A stretch of DNA of 13,465 bases from a virus, in UHGV virus genome UHGV-2124687. One strand, 5' to 3'. Of this stretch, positions 2,893 to 11,371 are shown piece after piece. The first letter of the stretch is position 1; each line of letters opens with the position of its first letter. Under the pieces are notes generated by a model. The model saw nothing but the letters and a program-made list of their open reading frames with translations. It made no database searches and was not told the DNA's origin. A program made the position numbers and the translations under genes.

Positions 2893-3053
2893 GGCCCTGT
2901 ATCGCCAGGGTAAGCGGAACATTTGATTCTGAGTAATCACTGCGTGTGGTTACTTGATGGAATAAGGTTAAGATTGCTAACCAAGTTTGGCAAGTTGTTT
3001 TTGGTAATAAAACTAAACAAAAGAGACGTAAGAAGATAACTTACTGAAAAAGG

Positions 3054-3461
3054 TTATTTTTTTTCTGTTCGTTTGCGGGCTTTTAGGAGTTCTTCGAAGA
3101 GCTGGTTGAAGTTTTCAACTCGAGCCCGGAGATTTTGGATTTGAGCTTGTTGCTCTGATTCTGGCAAAGAGCGATAGAGCTCAAGCATCTCTTGTTCATC
3201 AACGCTTAAAGTTCTCTGCTCTTCAATTGAGACTGGTTCTGCAGGAGTCTGGTCTTCATCACCAAACAAAATCCAAGTAGGGCTGCACTGGAGCACCTTA
3301 GCAAGTGCATGCAGGTTCTTACCTGAAGGCTCTGTGTTGTCACTTTCCCATAGCGAAATAGTGGCGTGCGATATCCCGAGAGCTTTTCCAAGATCTCGCT
3401 GCGTTAACCCAACATCTTTGCGTCGACGTAATACTCGACGACCTAAAGTTTCACTATTCAT
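3054..3461 (-). CDS. dicA: DicA-like HTH (XRE-family) prophage repressor, 135 aa
   Basis: Translation has an N-terminal HTH (GLTQRDLGKALGISHATISLWE) and the tail ...AKVLQCSPTWILFGDED...LPESEQ...RARVENFNQLFEELLKARKRTEKK, closely matching my recollection of E. coli DicA (same length). Divergent from a Cro-like gene. Confidence 0.9.
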   Translation of the reverse strand: MNSETLGRRVLRRRKDVGLTQRDLGKALGISHATISLWESDNTEPSGKNLHALAKVLQCSPTWILFGDEDQTPAEPVSIEEQRTLSVDEQEMLELYRSLPESEQQAQIQNLRARVENFNQLFEELLKARKRTEKK

Positions 3462-6044: not shown

Positions 6045-6057
6045 TCTGGAGAATTTT

Positions 6058-6720
6058 ATGGATACCATTTTAGACGTACTGAAAGCGATGGAAAAAGCGA
6101 CTGCCCGTGAAATTGCGGCACGTATGAAAATTGAGCCTGCGGCGGTGATCGGGATGCTGCGTGAACACGAAGAACGTAACGAGGTTATTCAGGTTAACGG
6201 GTATTGGAAGGTTTCTACCGGGGAAGTTAAATCACAGCCAAAAGCGATCAGTTCTTTCAGCAAAGCGCCGGTAAGTGTATCAGTCAGCGACGTCATCGCA
6301 TTACTGGCGGAACATGGGCCACAGACATCCCTTGAGCTGGCAACACTGGCAGGTATTGAGTCAAAACGTGTGGCGCCAATGCTGACTCACCACATGACAA
6401 AAGGGCGGATCATCCGCGAAAAAGTAGGCAGCAAGTTTGTTTATTCGGTGCCGGCCACTGCGTCAGTGAAAAACAAAAGCTCTGCACCACGGGAACCGGA
6501 AACATCAACACCACTGGTACCAGAAAAATCTGTCACTGAAATTGTTGAGGAAATCCCCGCTTTCGTCAGCCGTCCTGATGATCTGCTGATCCCAACGGTA
6601 CGCGGTATCTCAAGTGAAATTCGGCGCACAAAAGCGAAGCTGGCTAACCTGGAAAAACTTCGTGAAGCCGTTCGCAGCATTCGCAAACACGGTGCGCTGA
6701 TGCAGGAGCTGGTGCAATGA
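6058..6720 (+). CDS. Phage protein with two winged-helix-like segments (DUF1627-like), 220 aa
   Basis: GGAGA upstream of the ATG; two helix-turn-helix-like stretches (DVLKAMEKATAREIAARM...; SDVIALLAEHGPQTSLELATLAGI...). Family name from memory. Confidence 0.55.
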   Translation: MDTILDVLKAMEKATAREIAARMKIEPAAVIGMLREHEERNEVIQVNGYWKVSTGEVKSQPKAISSFSKAPVSVSVSDVIALLAEHGPQTSLELATLAGIESKRVAPMLTHHMTKGRIIREKVGSKFVYSVPATASVKNKSSAPREPETSTPLVPEKSVTEIVEEIPAFVSRPDDLLIPTVRGISSEIRRTKAKLANLEKLREAVRSIRKHGALMQELVQ

Positions 6721-6926
6721 AACAGTCTGAGTTACCACGCTGTCCGACCTGCGGAAATATGCCCGAATACGCGCTAAAGCCTAACTATATGGGTTGGGTA
6801 TGGGGTGGATTGAAATGCCCGTATGACCATTATCGTGTGAATTTGAATGGTCCAGCCGCTAGCCGCGCACAGGCAGAGAAAAAGCTGGCGCCACAGTGGA
6901 TTGAACTTGTCGAAAAAATAAACTAG
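6717..6926 (+). CDS. Small zinc-ribbon-like protein, possibly Lar-family restriction alleviation, 69 aa
   Basis: ATGA start/stop overlap with the upstream gene; CPTCG motif plus a downstream C and H. Lar assignment is tentative. Confidence 0.5.
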   Translation: MKQSELPRCPTCGNMPEYALKPNYMGWVWGGLKCPYDHYRVNLNGPAASRAQAEKKLAPQWIELVEKIN

Positions 6927-6937
6927 GGAAAAACAGC

Positions 6938-7270
6938 ATGAAACCAACCTACTGGGGACTAGCAGCACAACTCGCTAAGGCTGAGAGCAAGTACAGGGAA
7001 TTGGTAGCGGAGAATGGACATGCGCGTAGACGACATATATTTATCCGTGCTCTGGCGGTTTTGATTCTTGAGCATAGTGGCGGCCGTATAAACTGGCGTG
7101 GTGCGATGGAAGACGCCGGGCACTACCCGGCGCATCAATTGCCATTATTTGCCAGAGATCACTCCCCAGGAATGTTGGCCAACTCCAAAAGCAAATGCCA
7201 AGAAAATAAGTCCAGACCAACGCTCAATCCCTTCCGCCATTATGAGCATCGCTATTCCTATGCCTGCTAA
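6938..7270 (+). CDS. Hypothetical protein; 3' part doubtful
   Basis: ORF-track ORF with a weak RBS; the last ~125 nt overlap the convergent membrane-protein ORF and translate to low-complexity sequence, so it may be shorter or degraded. Confidence 0.3.
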   Translation: MKPTYWGLAAQLAKAESKYRELVAENGHARRRHIFIRALAVLILEHSGGRINWRGAMEDAGHYPAHQLPLFARDHSPGMLANSKSKCQENKSRPTLNPFRHYEHRYSYAC

Positions 7271-7339
7271 TGGAATACCTAATATGATGAAGAGGAGCAC
7301 CGAACAGATAACTTGGGTTGTCGTGGGTTGATGAGACAT
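7145..7339 (-). CDS. Small hydrophobic protein, 64 aa, two predicted transmembrane segments
   Basis: Two hydrophobic stretches (VICSVLLFIILGIPLAGIGIAMLIMA; GLIFLAFAFGVG); AAAGGTG upstream of the ATG; TATAAT (complement of 7380-7385) ~40 nt upstream in an AT-rich block. Confidence 0.45.
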   Translation of the reverse strand: MSHQPTTTQVICSVLLFIILGIPLAGIGIAMLIMAEGIERWSGLIFLAFAFGVGQHSWGVISGK

Positions 7340-7541
7340 GTTAACACCTTTAATGAAGGAAACCGTCTGGGCGCAATTTATTATAGTTTTTATATATTTC
7401 CATTAAGTAACTTTGCTTTTGTTATTTACTGTGCCTTCCATGGGCGCGGAAAGCATATTAAAAAAAGCTACTCATATCTTCAATTCACCAATTTTGGTGG
7501 GGCAATAGTTGCGCTGGAGCGTACAACTTACCATACAAGCG

Positions 7542-7560
7542 NNNNNNNNNNNNNNNNNNN
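7542..7560. other. Run of 19 N (gap or masked bases)
   Basis: Literal n characters in the sequence. Confidence 1.
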
Positions 7561-7569
7561 CGGCAATAC

Positions 7570-7590
7570 AGGCCTCCTTGGAGGCCTTTT
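7570..7590 (+). terminator. Candidate intrinsic terminator
   Basis: GGCCUC / GAGGCC stem followed by UUUU; sits just after the N gap, so its transcript is unknown. Confidence 0.4.
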
Positions 7591-7607
7591 CGATGCTTAG
7601 AGTGTAT

Positions 7608-7722
7608 AGGTGGTGCTGGTTAACTGAAGCAATGGTGAGGGATAATCTGCCGTAGTTGTGTCAGCAGAAACAAATGGCAGCTTAATAAAATATTGCTAAT
7701 TAAACCCGGTACGGCAGGTTTT
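7608..7722 (+). ncRNA. Copy A of a ~100-nt terminator-ending element (candidate sRNA family; terminator stem degenerate in this copy)
   Basis: About 78% identical by eye to 10912-11029; shared blocks GCAATgGTGAGGG, CAGCAGAAA, TAATAAAA, TGCTAATT, AACCCGnTACGGCnGGTTTT. Confidence 0.25.
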
Positions 7723-7752
7723 CTTTTTCACTTCATCAATCTCTGCTACGAT

Positions 7753-7781
7753 TCCCTATCTTTTACTGATGGGGATAGGGA
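7753..7781 (+). promoter_or_regulatory. Hairpin that would sequester the RBS of the small peptide gene
   Basis: 8-bp inverted repeat TCCCTATC / GATAGGGA with a 13-nt loop; the 3' arm is the G-rich SD-like stretch ending 2 nt before the ATG at 7783. Confidence 0.4.
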
Positions 7782-7782
7782 T

Positions 7783-7950
7783 ATGAAGAAAGTTCTTGTT
7801 GCTTTATTGTTGTCACTTTTCTCAGTGACAGCAACGGCAGCAAACAAGCCATGCTCAGGTAAGAAAGGCGGAATATCGCATTGCTCGGGTGAAAAGTTTG
7901 TTTGTAATGATGGCTCTATCAGCAAGTCTAAGAAGGTTTGTCAGAAATAG
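7783..7950 (+). CDS. Small secreted peptide, 55 aa: signal peptide plus ~33-aa Lys-rich mature part with four Cys
   Basis: Internal ATG of ORF 7693..7950; N-terminus MKKVLVALLLSLFSVTATAA looks like a Sec signal peptide (no lipobox); mature part NKPCSGKKGGISHCSGEKFVCNDGSISKSKKVCQK; terminator-like hairpin ~30 nt downstream. Confidence 0.55.
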   Translation: MKKVLVALLLSLFSVTATAANKPCSGKKGGISHCSGEKFVCNDGSISKSKKVCQK

Positions 7951-7982
7951 TTGCCGATAAATGGCACTCACCATCAAAAACA

Positions 7983-8004
7983 AACCCGCTATGGCTGGTT
8001 TTTT
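7983..8004 (+). terminator. Terminator hairpin, third copy of the element's 3' module
   Basis: AACCCGCUAUGGCUGGUUUUUU, one mismatch in the stem; same module as at 7703-7725 and 11007-11029, followed by the same ACTC tail. Confidence 0.4.
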
Positions 8005-8070
8005 ACTCTCTATTGGATACGCTATTTTTTAGGCATTAAGAGCGATTAGTAGGACGCTTCTGGAGAAGGC

Positions 8071-8268
8071 GTGGATTCAACGAACGACGAAGAAAAGCGC
8101 ATAGAATTTGAAAAATTCATCATTGAAAAGTTTGGTGATGCAGTTGATCTCCGCAGGGCGAAAAATGGCGATAACGGATATTTATCATGGGAGGCGGCAG
8201 TAGCATGGACTGTCTGGCGGGAGCGCTCATCTCATCATGAAACAACGTCTACCTCTGGCGAGAACTGA
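8071..8268 (+). CDS. Hypothetical acidic protein, 65 aa, GTG start
   Basis: GGAGAAGG directly upstream of the GTG at 8071; first ORF of three overlapping ORFs in three frames. Confidence 0.4.
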   Translation: MDSTNDEEKRIEFEKFIIEKFGDAVDLRRAKNGDNGYLSWEAAVAWTVWRERSSHHETTSTSGEN

Positions 8269-8461
8269 TTTAGTATGGTGCTGCCCGGAGCTTCCTGTTA
8301 ATCACTATGTACTCCCGTTTAGCCACGTCATTTTAGATTTGGTTTTGGTCCGCTATGAGCGAGGAGCAGAAGTTCGTAATTCCTTTAGACAATCCTCCAG
8401 GGAGGTTATGATAAAATATACAGCCATAAAGCCTATAGGGAGTGGACATGACATTGTTTGA
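8237..8461 (+). CDS. Hypothetical protein, 74 aa (weakly supported)
   Basis: ORF-track ORF overlapping its neighbours by 32 nt and 20 nt; weak RBS. May be a frameshifted remnant. Confidence 0.25.
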   Translation: MKQRLPLARTDLVWCCPELPVNHYVLPFSHVILDLVLVRYERGAEVRNSFRQSSREVMIKYTAIKPIGSGHDIV

Positions 8462-8822: not shown

Positions 8823-9091
8823 TGAGCAGAAATACTGACCAGCTCCCCGTTGTTCAACTAAGACTTGTTATTGACAACTTCCGCTAATGGCACGGAGCGG
8901 ACAGGCCAAGCGACTTGTCAGGTCGGCTATGAGCGAAAAGCTGACATTAATTAAACCACAGGAAAGCTACCTGTCCAGAGAGAATGGTCAGGGGAGCAAA
9001 CGGTGAGCTCCATTAAGTTGTCGCTGCTTTTCTCGGGCTGTCAGCGCAAGCCGGAGATGGGCAGAAAAAAAGTCGTGTCTGGATCGCTAAA

Positions 9092-9587
9092 TCAAAGTGT
9101 CATCATCATTTCATGCCATGCCATTCCACCGTGGTCCGATTCTGACGGTTTGATGTACTGGTAACCAAAATGGGCGTACAGATCGACGTGGCGGTCTTTG
9201 CACATCAGGTGAATGGTTTTTTTGTTCATTGCTATCATGCGCGTCACAAATTCACGCATCAGTAATGATGAATATCCTTTGCCCTGGTAATCAGGGTGCA
9301 CCACGACAGACATAATCACTGCATTGGGTGCATCCGGATCGTGACCTACCAGTTCTTTGAACTCTTCGTCGGACATCACGACTTCCCACGCACAGCCCGC
9401 ATTAATGAAACCAATAACGTCACCGTTCAACTCCATGCATANNNNNNNNNNNNNNNNNNNNNNNNNNNNNNNNNNNNNNNNNNNNNNNNNNNNNNNNNNN
9501 NNNNNNNNNNNNNNNNNNTGTGATTTCAATATCATAGCAACGATCAACATCGGCATCAGTGGCCTGACGGAATACAGGGGTAGACAT
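9092..9587 (-). CDS. GNAT-family N-acetyltransferase, interrupted by the N run
   Basis: Start reconstructed by hand at 9587 (MSTPVFRQATDADVDRCYDIEIT...), upstream of the track ORF 9092..9556; downstream part has a GNAT-like core (HPDYQGKGYSSLLMREFV). Frame across the gap is undefined. Confidence 0.8.
9442..9518. other. Run of 77 N (gap or masked bases) inside the GNAT gene
   Basis: Literal n characters in the sequence. Confidence 1.
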
Positions 9588-9723
9588 AGCCTTGCCTCTT
9601 CAGATTCATTTGTTTGGAATTATACTATCTTTTTTTTATCCTGCTTTCGCTGCATTTTATTCAACACTAAAATGTAGAATATTCATTTATTGTGTTTTAA
9701 ATAATATCTGAGAAAGAAGAATC

Positions 9724-10695
9724 ATGATGTCAACGTTGCGCAAGATCGATCTGAATTTATTGCTTATATTCGATTCTCTTTATCGGCATGGAAGCGTGAC
9801 GGAGGCCGCCAACGAACTGGCACTAAGCCCATCCGCACTAAGTCATGCGCTCAATCGCTTACGTACATCACTGGACGATCCCTTATTCGTGCGCACTGGT
9901 GGAAGCATGGTGCCCACGTCAAAAGCTGAAAGCATTGCAGCAAGTATTTCTGCCGCTCTAGGAAGTCTCTCGTCCTGCCTGCATGAGCCAGAACACTTTG
10001 AGCCGGAAAAAAGCCGGGAGAGTTTTACCTTTGCTGCTACGGACTACACTGCCGCCGCTATCCTGCCAAGCTTGATCGCGAGGGTTAACAGCCTTGCGCC
10101 GGGCATTACCATTAAGCTTATCTACTCACGCGATTTTAACGCCGACGAAGATTTGCTTTCAGGCAAAGTTGATTTCGCCCTTGGCTTTGAAGAAGAGCAG
10201 AAAGCCCCACGGCGCGGCATAGAGTCGATTACTTGCTTTACTGATGATTACGTGGTTGCAGTGCGACGCGGTCATCCTAATATCCAGGATTCCCTTACCC
10301 AAGAGCGTTATCTGAGCGCCGGACACGTAGTGGTGCGTCCATGGTTGGAAAGACGGGGGGGGATCGACCGTTATCTGGAAAGTCAGCAGGTACGTCGCCG
10401 GGTCGTTGTTGAATTGCCAAGCCTGATGATTGCCCCAATTATCGTTTCGAATACTGATCTGGTTATCACGCTTCCCAAGCGGGGGATCTCATCAGTTTTT
10501 GATATGAAAAATCTGGTGGTGTTTGCTCCCCCGTTCCCGACACCACAGTACATTTTGAAAGCCTATTACAGCCCGGCACTCGGTAACTCGCCAGGGCATA
10601 TATGGATGAGGGGGCAAATTTTGCAGGTTTGTGATCCGCTAAATCCGGCGATGCCAGTAATTGCTGTCGATACAAATTCTGGTACAGAAAGGTAA
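9724..10695 (+). CDS. LysR-family transcriptional regulator, 323 aa
   Basis: N-terminal LysR-type HTH (KIDLNLLLIFDSLYRHGSVTEAANELALSPSALSHALNRLR) and typical length; divergent from the GNAT gene across a 136-bp AT-rich region. Confidence 0.9.
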   Translation: MMSTLRKIDLNLLLIFDSLYRHGSVTEAANELALSPSALSHALNRLRTSLDDPLFVRTGGSMVPTSKAESIAASISAALGSLSSCLHEPEHFEPEKSRESFTFAATDYTAAAILPSLIARVNSLAPGITIKLIYSRDFNADEDLLSGKVDFALGFEEEQKAPRRGIESITCFTDDYVVAVRRGHPNIQDSLTQERYLSAGHVVVRPWLERRGGIDRYLESQQVRRRVVVELPSLMIAPIIVSNTDLVITLPKRGISSVFDMKNLVVFAPPFPTPQYILKAYYSPALGNSPGHIWMRGQILQVCDPLNPAMPVIAVDTNSGTER

Positions 10696-10911
10696 TCCGA
10701 TCATCTTTACTGCTCTCTAACTAGCTATCAGTTTAATGAATTCCTAGTAATTTAAAGCAGGGAGCGTTCATTATGTGACTCATGTCGAAGCTTAGTGTCA
10801 GGGAGAGAGGTAGTAAGACTTCGAAATTGTTGGACGTCTGCTTCTGGCACTATCCAGCCCTTTGCTGATTGAAAAAGACGAATGAAAGTTGGATACGCTT
10901 TACCTCATGGT

Positions 10912-11029
10912 CACACAGTTGCTCACTGATGATGCAATAGTGAGGGCGAATCTCTCGGATTGTGCCAGCAGAAAGAAACTGCCGCATAATAAAACACTGC
11001 TAATTCAACCCGCTACGGCGGGTTTTTTT
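10912..11029 (+). ncRNA. Copy B of the ~100-nt element, ending in a perfect intrinsic terminator (candidate sRNA)
   Basis: Homologous to 7608-7722; terminator AACCCGC-UACG-GCGGGUU then seven U at 11007-11029. Lies between the LysR stop and the dinI promoter with no ORF. Confidence 0.3.
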
Positions 11030-11096
11030 GTTTTACTCCTGACAGGAAATTAACAATTTGTGCTCTTAAAACGTTGATCATTTCCGTGCATGAGTA

Positions 11097-11116
11097 TACT
11101 GTATAAAAAAACAGTA
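11097..11116. promoter_or_regulatory. LexA box (SOS operator) over the dinI promoter
   Basis: TACTGTATAAAAAAACAGTA matches the CTGT-N8-ACAG consensus; overlaps a TATACT -10-like hexamer (11095-11100) with TTGATC at 11074-11079. Confidence 0.75.
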
Positions 11117-11134
11117 TATGCAATGGAGGCCATT

Positions 11135-11371
11135 ATGAAAGTTGAATTAACCATTGATCGCATGAAAGAACTTCCTAAAGGCGCGGTTCCAGCACTGGAG
11201 AAAGAATTACTTAACCGCCTGAATGATCACTATGACAATTGCAGGCTTACAATCCGGCGCGCAGGGTCGAATGGGTTAAGTGTTTTTGGCGGTGACAAGG
11301 ACGATAAAAAGAAAATTGAATCAATCCTCCAGGATACCTGGGAAAGTGCAGACGAGTGGTTTGTTAATTAA
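11135..11371 (+). CDS. dinI: DinI-family DNA-damage-inducible protein, 78 aa
   Basis: GGAGG 5 nt upstream of the ATG; MKVELTIDRMKELPKGAVPALEKEL...LSVFGGDKDDKKKIESILQDTWESADEWFVN closely matches recalled E. coli DinI. Confidence 0.9.
   Translation: MKVELTIDRMKELPKGAVPALEKELLNRLNDHYDNCRLTIRRAGSNGLSVFGGDKDDKKKIESILQDTWESADEWFVN

Follow-up and report, generated by a model that had tools for sequence, protein, structure and literature searches.

The DNA examined here (the window) is a stretch of 13,465 nucleotides from the UHGV virus genome UHGV-2124687 and corresponds to the region of a lambdoid Citrobacter prophage that holds its immunity and early-right genes. On its minus strand, at 7145..7339, lies an open reading frame (ORF) with an ATG start and a TAA stop (7147..7145), which encodes a two-helix membrane protein of 64 amino acids (64 aa), MSHQPTTTQVICSVLLFIILGIPLAGIGIAMLIMAEGIERWSGLIFLAFAFGVGQHSWGVISGK. 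Comparison of this ORF with its relatives identifies it as a real, conserved gene under purifying selection. Codon comparison at five loci gave ratios of non-synonymous to synonymous substitution (dN/dS) of 0.12–0.32, with third codon positions changing most, and the frame is intact in at least 12 divergent loci. Across the 13 loci compared for insertions and deletions, indels consisted of whole codons only and synonymous changes were spread over the full length of the ORF, so that no overlapping element appears to constrain it.

A first-pass annotation, made from the letters of the window alone, had described a strongly hydrophobic protein with two membrane helices, and this description is borne out by the present analysis. 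The product has two hydrophobic stretches and a grand average of hydropathy (GRAVY) of 1.09, and AlphaFold2, supplied with a 28-sequence alignment, predicts helices at residues 7–34 and 37–62 separated by a tight turn, with a mean predicted local distance difference test (pLDDT) score of 93.1. Among proteins down to 26% identity, residues P23, G37 and E39 never vary and residues G43, F51, G52 and Q55 hardly ever do, a pattern of conservation that argues for a specific structure or partner. The short turn (A-E-G-I-E-R-W) is conserved and the C-terminal tail is basic: in nearly all members the N-terminus has a net charge of about 0, while the turn carries −1 to +1 and the tail +2 to +3. Because the tail is positive and the turn neutral to slightly acidic, the positive-inside rule suggests an inner-membrane hairpin with both termini in the cytoplasm (N-in/C-in) and the G-I-E-R-W turn in the periplasm. 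Frameshifted, decayed copies of the family also occur (P0147 and P0148). In one Citrobacter genome (L010, 8366–9118), IS1 lies inside the ORF at the equivalent of window position 7302 and all sequence from IS1 to the lysis genes is gone; targeted inactivation was considered for this copy and rejected, as the insertion marks a large IS1-associated deletion.

The gene is overlapped on the opposite strand by a longer ORF, 6938..7270 (110 aa), which gene callers annotate in place of the 64-aa gene in every Citrobacter prophage copy read (L008–L011). This consistent choice is what speaks for taking the plus-strand ORF as the true gene, with no more than a chance open frame on the minus strand, a view that the comparisons refute and to which we assign next to no probability. 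Among 172 homologues of the plus-strand product, 170 align to residues 1–60 only, ending ...WRGAMEDA, and carry unrelated C-termini past that point; the two exceptions, a near-identical Citrobacter copy (P0009; 34 contigs, listed in 57 index blocks) and P0010, both carry the module with the 64-aa gene. In P0010 the same antisense tail is joined to a different N-terminus, which led to a second prophage bearing the same module (L006/L007). Frame arithmetic places the substitutions within the overlap at third positions of the minus frame, which are first positions of the plus frame, and the minus frame is the one that stays intact among divergent loci with indels in multiples of three. The first 60 codons (6938..7117, plus) are accordingly the genuine part of a phage early gene, matched by phrog_26126 and truncated by the module, and the remainder (7118..7270, plus) is an adventitious tail lacking homology outside module-bearing loci. 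Because this tail is the antisense reading of the 64-aa gene, the 110-aa ORF is evidently a junction artefact, a chimera. The first-pass annotation had noted the overlap and doubted the 3′ end of the plus-strand ORF, with good reason, and had named a conserved plus-strand coding sequence as the finding that would tell against the minus-strand gene; the confinement of homology to residues 1–60 favours the 64-aa gene instead. Two other plus-strand ORFs, 7313..7600 and 7413..7508, were also rejected, their frames being broken by 1-base indels among close relatives.

Comparison among relatives shows the gene to be part of a self-contained unit at ~7105..7500 (about 400–450 bp) made up of a promoter region, a leader, a Shine-Dalgarno sequence, the ORF and its own intrinsic terminator. 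The terminator (7105..7132, minus) marks the left end of the module and has a predicted stem CGCCGGG/CCCGGCG (7132..7114) followed by the tail UCUUCCAUC, with a folding energy of −20.1 kcal/mol (z = −2.5). The same hairpin occurs with a UUUUC tail in L001 and L002, and a non-homologous canonical terminator, AAAGCAGGATnATnATCCTGCTTTTTT, takes the same place in L004, L005, L012 and L016; a terminator thus follows the stop codon in every context, by way of non-homologous hairpins, as expected of a moron. The limits of the module are drawn by comparison with four different contexts, in which the boundaries at 7105 and ~7541/7590 recur: 7105..7541 is 94–95% identical both to a Kluyvera chromosomal site beside sufA (L001) and to L006/L007, an unrelated prophage of the lambdoid type, 7105..7590 is 75–78% identical to Leclercia-type prophages (L021–L026), and 7145..7677 is ~72–75% identical to L004. 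Base composition changes in the same region, as is typical of morons, from a GC content of 0.50–0.52 left of 7100 to 0.37–0.42 from 7200 on. The corresponding empty site is found in L027–L029, where the last early gene is followed by the terminator and then by DinI or nin genes, the 64-aa gene being absent. From these comparisons we conclude that the module is inserted in reverse between the last replication-side early gene, which it truncates, and a tR2-like terminator.

A position after the replication block is shared by the window, L004, L006 and L021–26, and in L021–L026 and L006 the gene lies reversed between the last early gene and DUF1367-NinG-Q. In Cronobacter (L016–L018) it is instead reversed between xis and the genes of the pL operon, so that it is antisense to lytic operons at two prophage positions. 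The first-pass annotation had the gene converging on the nin genes, which is incorrect: it converges on the replication-side early genes (6058..7117) and points away from the nin-type genes. The same annotation correctly gave the gene its own expression signals and an accessory position in the prophage. The gene does not lie within the variable cargo: 6047..8367 is unchanged in the near-identical prophages L008, L009, L011 and L020, whose variable part begins at ~8.4–8.9 kb.

The Shine-Dalgarno sequence AAAGGTG (7345..7351, minus), judged good in the first-pass annotation and found to be so, stands 5 nt from the ATG within a conserved leader (~7340..7370). Positions −31 to −1 before the ATG are 81–90% identical between the window and L004, L012 and L021, compared with 54–58% at third codon positions, and the leader motif ACGGTTTYC...AAGG persists at 35% protein identity. 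A TATAAT hexamer, which had been put forward as a consensus −10, is indeed present (7380..7385, minus), but as a possible proximal −10 it finds little support: the window contains three such hexamers against 5.6 expected from shuffles, a two-hexamer promoter scan of 6700..8100 reported nothing and gave no −35 for it, and only TATAA is conserved, the sixth base being A in L001 and L004 and G in L002, L021 and L024. A better conserved candidate promoter is P1 (7455..7483, minus), with a −35 TTGAAG (7483..7478), a 17-nt spacer and a −10 TAATAT (7460..7455). The predicted start near 7447 would give a leader of ~108 nt. In L001, L004, L006, L012 and L024–26 the P1 hexamers are kept (TTGAAR; TAATGT, TAAAAT or TAATAT) across a diverged spacer, the chromosomal Citrobacter copy (L012) having TTGAAA-16-TAAAAT; in L002 and L021/L022 the −35 TTGAAA alone is clearly kept and the −10 is poor (TAAGGA, TAAATG). 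A conserved region upstream of P1 (7484..7529) contains, beside the −35, the inverted repeat CACCAAAATTGGTG (minus-strand reading), which is degenerate in L012; this region may be an operator or an UP-like element.

Several other candidates in the leader were set aside. RNAalifold pairs 5′ CGCC..GGAAG with UUUCC..GGUG, which includes the Shine-Dalgarno sequence, at −3 kcal/mol and with one covarying pair only, and the local hairpin occluding the Shine-Dalgarno sequence is no more stable than shuffled sequence (z = 0.17). A LexA box upstream of the gene proved on reading the sequence to be a half-site, TACTGT, the full box lying before dinI. A 17-codon upstream ORF, ATGGAAATATATAAAAAC... (7408–7355, minus), ends with its TAA inside the Shine-Dalgarno region and begins with an ATGGAA that is invariant in 10 relatives. 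Its frame is shifted in L001 and L012, and in L001 the shifted frame fuses in frame with the main ORF, explaining the 85-aa cluster member P0150. With the frame broken in L001 and L012, no Shine-Dalgarno sequence and no synonymous bias, the upstream ORF is probably not coding.

On the plus strand, 7484–7592 folds into two hairpins, one small and the other variable, together with a perfect 7+4+7 palindrome and an intrinsic terminator (7570..7590). Comparison with relatives assigns 7530..7592 of this region to the phage backbone, as an element composed of a conserved CCATACAAGCG, the palindrome and the terminator AGGCCTCC-TT-GGAGGCCT-TTTT (7570..7590). Lambdoid prophages of E. coli with no 64-aa gene have CCATACAAGCG, the palindrome and a terminator immediately behind the stop codon of their last early gene, ahead of DinI/DUF1367 or YbcN/NinE and on the early-operon strand; the stem of this terminator is fully compensated (ACCCGC/GCGGGT). 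On these grounds we take the element to be the tR2-like end of the early-right transcript. The palindrome is masked by N in the window (7542..7560); its sequence is ATATAGGGATTCCCATAT in L011, which is 97% identical, and most relatives have ATATGGGGATTCCCATAT. As a recurrent arrangement, an invariant CCATACAAGCG followed by the 22-bp palindrome CGATATGGG(G/A)AT(T/C)CCCATATCG stands just before early-operon terminators of lambdoid prophages (window 7530–7560, L011 8593–8626, L027 ~2995–3035), the 4-nt centre being found either way round, as GATT or as AATC. A stretch of 24 nt across the palindrome is also matched at 100% at unannotated sites in the unrelated E. coli phages Gluttony, Lust, Pride and GeorgBuechner.

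The conserved plus-strand hairpins and the genuine intrinsic terminator with its compensated stems, together with the fact that two outward-facing terminators form the ends of the module, could also describe a small RNA (sRNA) of ~110 nt at 7484..7592 (plus), with three hairpins and a terminator, forming a divergent sRNA/mRNA pair with the gene as in tisB/istR or zorO/orzO. This is highly improbable, as palindrome and terminator end a phage operon in E. coli prophages from which the 64-aa gene is absent, and the chromosomal members L012, L016 and L005 have no such element. Neither a promoter scan nor comparison of relatives revealed a conserved plus-strand promoter upstream of the gene, Rfam gave no match for the region, and duplexes between the upstream region and the mRNA were no stronger than with shuffled sequence, the only recurrent complementary stretch being 10–12 nt long and including 4–5 G-U pairs. 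An assignment of the hairpins to one strand from their G-U wobbles was dropped, since the wobbles point to both strands and favour neither. A dedicated sRNA or antitoxin upstream of the gene was therefore rejected despite the good fold: the absence of a conserved plus-strand promoter, complementarity not above shuffled controls and the occurrence of the hairpins without the gene all argue against a dedicated antisense RNA. The antisense control that the first-pass annotation considered, from the overlap with the plus-strand ORF, is still plausible as interference by read-through of the early-right operon, and not by translation of the plus-strand ORF.

The family to which the protein belongs is small and appears to be new. 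An initial search returned three homologues, and a profile search extended these to 27 homologous clusters with proteins of 62–87 aa, all from Enterobacterales (Citrobacter, Kluyvera, Leclercia, Cronobacter, Pantoea, Duffyella and Klebsiella); every member with a source name is labelled 'hypothetical protein'. A hidden Markov model scan of 1.8 billion representative proteins gave six matches only, one of them spurious, and no match was found to Pfam, PHROG, NCBIfam or PADLOC models. Fold searches of BFVD and the PDB returned generic helical hairpins only, none with an E-value ≤0.001. The gene is absent at DNA and protein level from INPHARED phages, PLSDB and E. coli genomes, except for one Duffyella plasmid match to a distant member, and the exact 64-aa sequence is recorded in MetaClust only, with neither gene call nor contig. 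We class it as a new and undescribed family of a known kind, prophage morons encoding small membrane proteins.

The commonest relative, P0133 (198 contigs), occupies a fixed locus in the Citrobacter chromosome, in the frmR-umuDC interval, and distant members lie on plasmid-type DNA, namely a Klebsiella contig with TraG, StbA and a umuC-like gene (L032) and a Duffyella plasmid (L040). Genes or fragments of the umuC type (IMS) adjoin the family in three independent contexts, the Citrobacter chromosome, Pantoea and the Klebsiella plasmid-type contig (L012–L015, L019, L032), an adjacency that may reflect shared mobile-element neighbourhoods. A kinship between the 126-aa neighbours in L001 and L004 was considered and rejected, as the two are unrelated to each other.

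In the window, the surrounding genes follow a lambdoid order. The left part contains a CI-like repressor (3054..3461, minus) with Cro alongside, after which come, from left to right, YdaT, DUF4222, an O/DnaT-like protein, a P-like protein, DUF1627 (6058..6720), a 69-aa ORF and the truncated early gene. To the right of the 64-aa gene and the tR2-like terminator lie genes for YdcA-like (phrog_6000), CdiI_ImmP, GNAT and LysR proteins, and at 11.1–12.5 kb the nin-type genes for DinI, a RecA-dependent nuclease/DUF968 and RusA. The accessory block of YdcA-like, CdiI_ImmP, GNAT and LysR genes is bracketed by ~108-bp direct repeats with 80% identity (7625–7732 and 10930–11037), each ending with a plus-strand terminator AACCCGCTACGGC(G/A)GGTTTT, and the same pair of repeats surrounds different cargo in L008, L009, L011, L020 and E. 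coli L027. Within this block, a segment of ~1.9 kb (8903–10834) with the GNAT acetyltransferase (9092..9556, minus) and the LysR regulator (9724..10695, plus) is missing from the otherwise 96–99% identical L011 and L020, and L008 has an AAA_15/ABC-type ATPase gene in the hot spot instead. Directly before the gene of the DinI family (ORF 11090..11371, with the real start further in) stands a LexA-box-like sequence, TACTGTATAAAAAAACAGTA (~11075–11110), and an equivalent site is present in L029.

The explanation that we favour for these observations is a lysogen-expressed exclusion or immunity-type membrane factor; we put it forward tentatively and, taken whole with the anatomy included, at somewhat less than an even chance. 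The anatomy (reality of the gene, fold class, boundaries, insertion site and distribution) is far more secure than the function. In the lysogen, where pR (or pL) is repressed, the 64-aa gene would be read from its own promoter; during lytic growth, early transcription antiterminated by N would cross it in antisense, reach the tR2-like terminator and continue past it, and would so lower its expression by collision or duplex RNA. Loci with their own promoter that lie antisense to lytic genes have been described as a signature of expressed prophage accessory genes (PMC7067206). The hairpin protein would then contact another envelope protein specifically, for example blocking DNA entry by superinfecting phages or other mobile elements. 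Since the polar turn is invariant and the second helix (TM2) carries a conserved motif, a specific partner is indicated and not unspecific membrane damage, and non-specific pore formation by the protein is less likely.

A further hint comes from the two plasmid-type members, L032 and L040, which share 111 nt upstream and a lipoprotein gene downstream at 89% identity (the lipoprotein itself at 85%), whereas the small ORF and its terminator cannot be aligned as DNA and the encoded proteins are 35% identical. The replacement of alleles between conserved flanks hints at a specificity determinant, of which immunity and exclusion proteins are typical examples. The lipoprotein itself, a predicted product of 97 aa (MKKLFMATVLGVAFLLAGCGD...; L032 6303–6596, L040 4303–4596), has no Pfam match. 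Pressed further, the same observations would point to an undescribed two-helix 'specificity' family on lambdoid prophages, plasmids and chromosomal islands of Enterobacterales, which excludes phage or conjugative DNA, has its alleles swapped between conserved promoter and flanks, and is made lysogeny-specific by antisense placement upstream of a tR2-like terminator; we regard this wider proposal as speculative and rather unlikely.

A number of observations weigh against the exclusion or immunity role and the lysogen-specific expression on which it depends. In the databases searched, neither the sequence nor the predicted fold resembles any known exclusion or defence protein, and the allele-swap argument is based on a single pair of loci. 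P1 agrees with the consensus at 8 of 12 positions, below the scan threshold, and is a promoter by consensus-level inference, and the U-tail of the window's own terminator is weakened to UCUUCC at the junction with the truncated phage gene. The fixed chromosomal locus of P0133, finally, makes a role in host physiology equally conceivable.

In such a host role the product could be a small membrane protein that regulates an envelope protein of the host, for instance a sensor kinase, a transporter or a component of cell division (compare MgrB, SafA and AcrZ), and would bring about lysogenic conversion apart from phage exclusion. The fixed copy in Citrobacter suits this account, as do the conserved motifs of turn and TM2 (G-I-E-R-W and F-G-x-x-Q) and an A-rich (ARN)n-like run in the leader, a possible target of Hfq-dependent sRNAs. 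We nevertheless find it doubtful, as nearly all remaining copies are on prophages or plasmid-like DNA, no conserved partner gene adjoins in prophages, and allele exchange between conserved flanks better fits a specificity determinant than a housekeeping regulator.

The small size and high hydrophobicity of the product also bring to mind a membrane toxin of a type I toxin–antitoxin-like, abortive-infection or addiction module, whose hairpin would permeabilise the inner membrane once translation is released and would otherwise be held in check by mRNA structure or antisense RNA. A toxin could account for a discrete mobile module found in several contexts, for the systematic under-annotation of the 64-aa gene, for decayed copies (the frameshifted P0147 and P0148 and the IS1-associated truncation in L010) and for a leader next to the Shine-Dalgarno sequence that is conserved well above neutral sites and capable of weak pairings with it; the Qin prophage of E. 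coli, moreover, has relBE-hokD beside rem. The regulatory half of such a system is, however, what the comparisons failed to reveal: no antitoxin and no conserved plus-strand promoter were found, the complementarity of the upstream region to the mRNA and the hairpin over the Shine-Dalgarno sequence are at the level of shuffled controls, the upstream hairpins and terminator are phage backbone that occurs without the gene, and synonymous sites in the ORF show no constraint that would mark an overlapping RNA. The protein, with two helices, an invariant polar turn and strong protein-level selection, is unlike the typical single-helix type I toxins, and it is kept at a fixed locus in many Citrobacter chromosomes without a recognisable partner. 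A toxin is therefore unlikely, and an exclusion or immunity role seems more likely for this gene than a classic toxin–antitoxin one.

If the exclusion or immunity function is confirmed, a compact and easily tested membrane factor would join the repertoire of prophage exclusion and immunity. The gene in any case illustrates how, in the Citrobacter prophage genomes examined, a genuine small gene is systematically concealed by calls of a longer chimeric ORF on the opposite strand. Its position indicates that the junction between replication block and tR2-like terminator in lambdoid prophages admits accessory genes in reverse orientation, and this orientation could by itself couple the expression of an accessory gene to lysogeny.

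Several known systems resemble parts of the locus. The plus-strand hairpin and T-run at 7570..7590 hold a position equivalent to that of lambda tR2, the terminator between the replication genes and nin, and are likened to it by position; an invariant palindrome of 22 bp stands before the terminator in the window. Class II holins and pinholins (S21) share with the 64-aa protein two transmembrane helices, a length of 60–70 aa and a phage origin, but the gene has no dual-start motif, runs opposite to the late genes and is placed outside the lysis cassette, between the replication genes and the nin region, and the same prophage has its own Phage_holin_2 and lysozyme downstream (L011); its position speaks against a holin. 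The type I toxins Hok, TisB, ZorO, ShoB and DinQ are comparable in their small hydrophobic products, compact mobile loci, long conserved leaders and frequent mis-annotation. They consist, however, of one helix and 19–50 aa, against 64 aa, two helices and a conserved polar turn here, and the antisense or divergent antitoxin RNA that defines the type was not found by examination of promoters, duplex energies, synonymous sites and Rfam. GhoT, a type V toxin of 57 aa with two transmembrane helices, is a membrane hairpin of similar size; it shows no similarity to the 64-aa protein, whose gene has no adjacent ghoS-like gene and is monocistronic with its own terminator.

The closest functional analogues, by analogy of kind, appear to be exclusion proteins of the inner membrane that morons encode, for example HK97 gp15, and blockers of DNA entry such as T4 Imm and P22 SieA. 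HK97 gp15 is reportedly a superinfection exclusion protein encoded by a moron and, like the protein described here, a small inner-membrane protein, said to have its own promoter and terminator and to be expressed in the lysogen; it differs in having no sequence or profile similarity to the 64-aa protein, and its gene lies among the tail genes and not, as here, where the early operon ends. T4 Imm is also a short protein with two transmembrane segments. Imm and SieA are not homologous to the 64-aa protein, Imm coming from a virulent phage in which it is expressed early in infection and SieA being much larger, and similarity to a described superinfection-exclusion family was not found in PHROGs, PADLOC, Pfam or NCBIfam, with fold searches being non-specific. 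What the 64-aa protein shares with such proteins is its predicted nature as a prophage-borne integral inner-membrane protein, as indicated by the modelled hairpin and the presence of the gene in lambdoid prophages. T4 Imm and P22 SieA are likewise phage-encoded integral proteins of the inner membrane and act there on incoming DNA, blocking its entry (PMC11436027).

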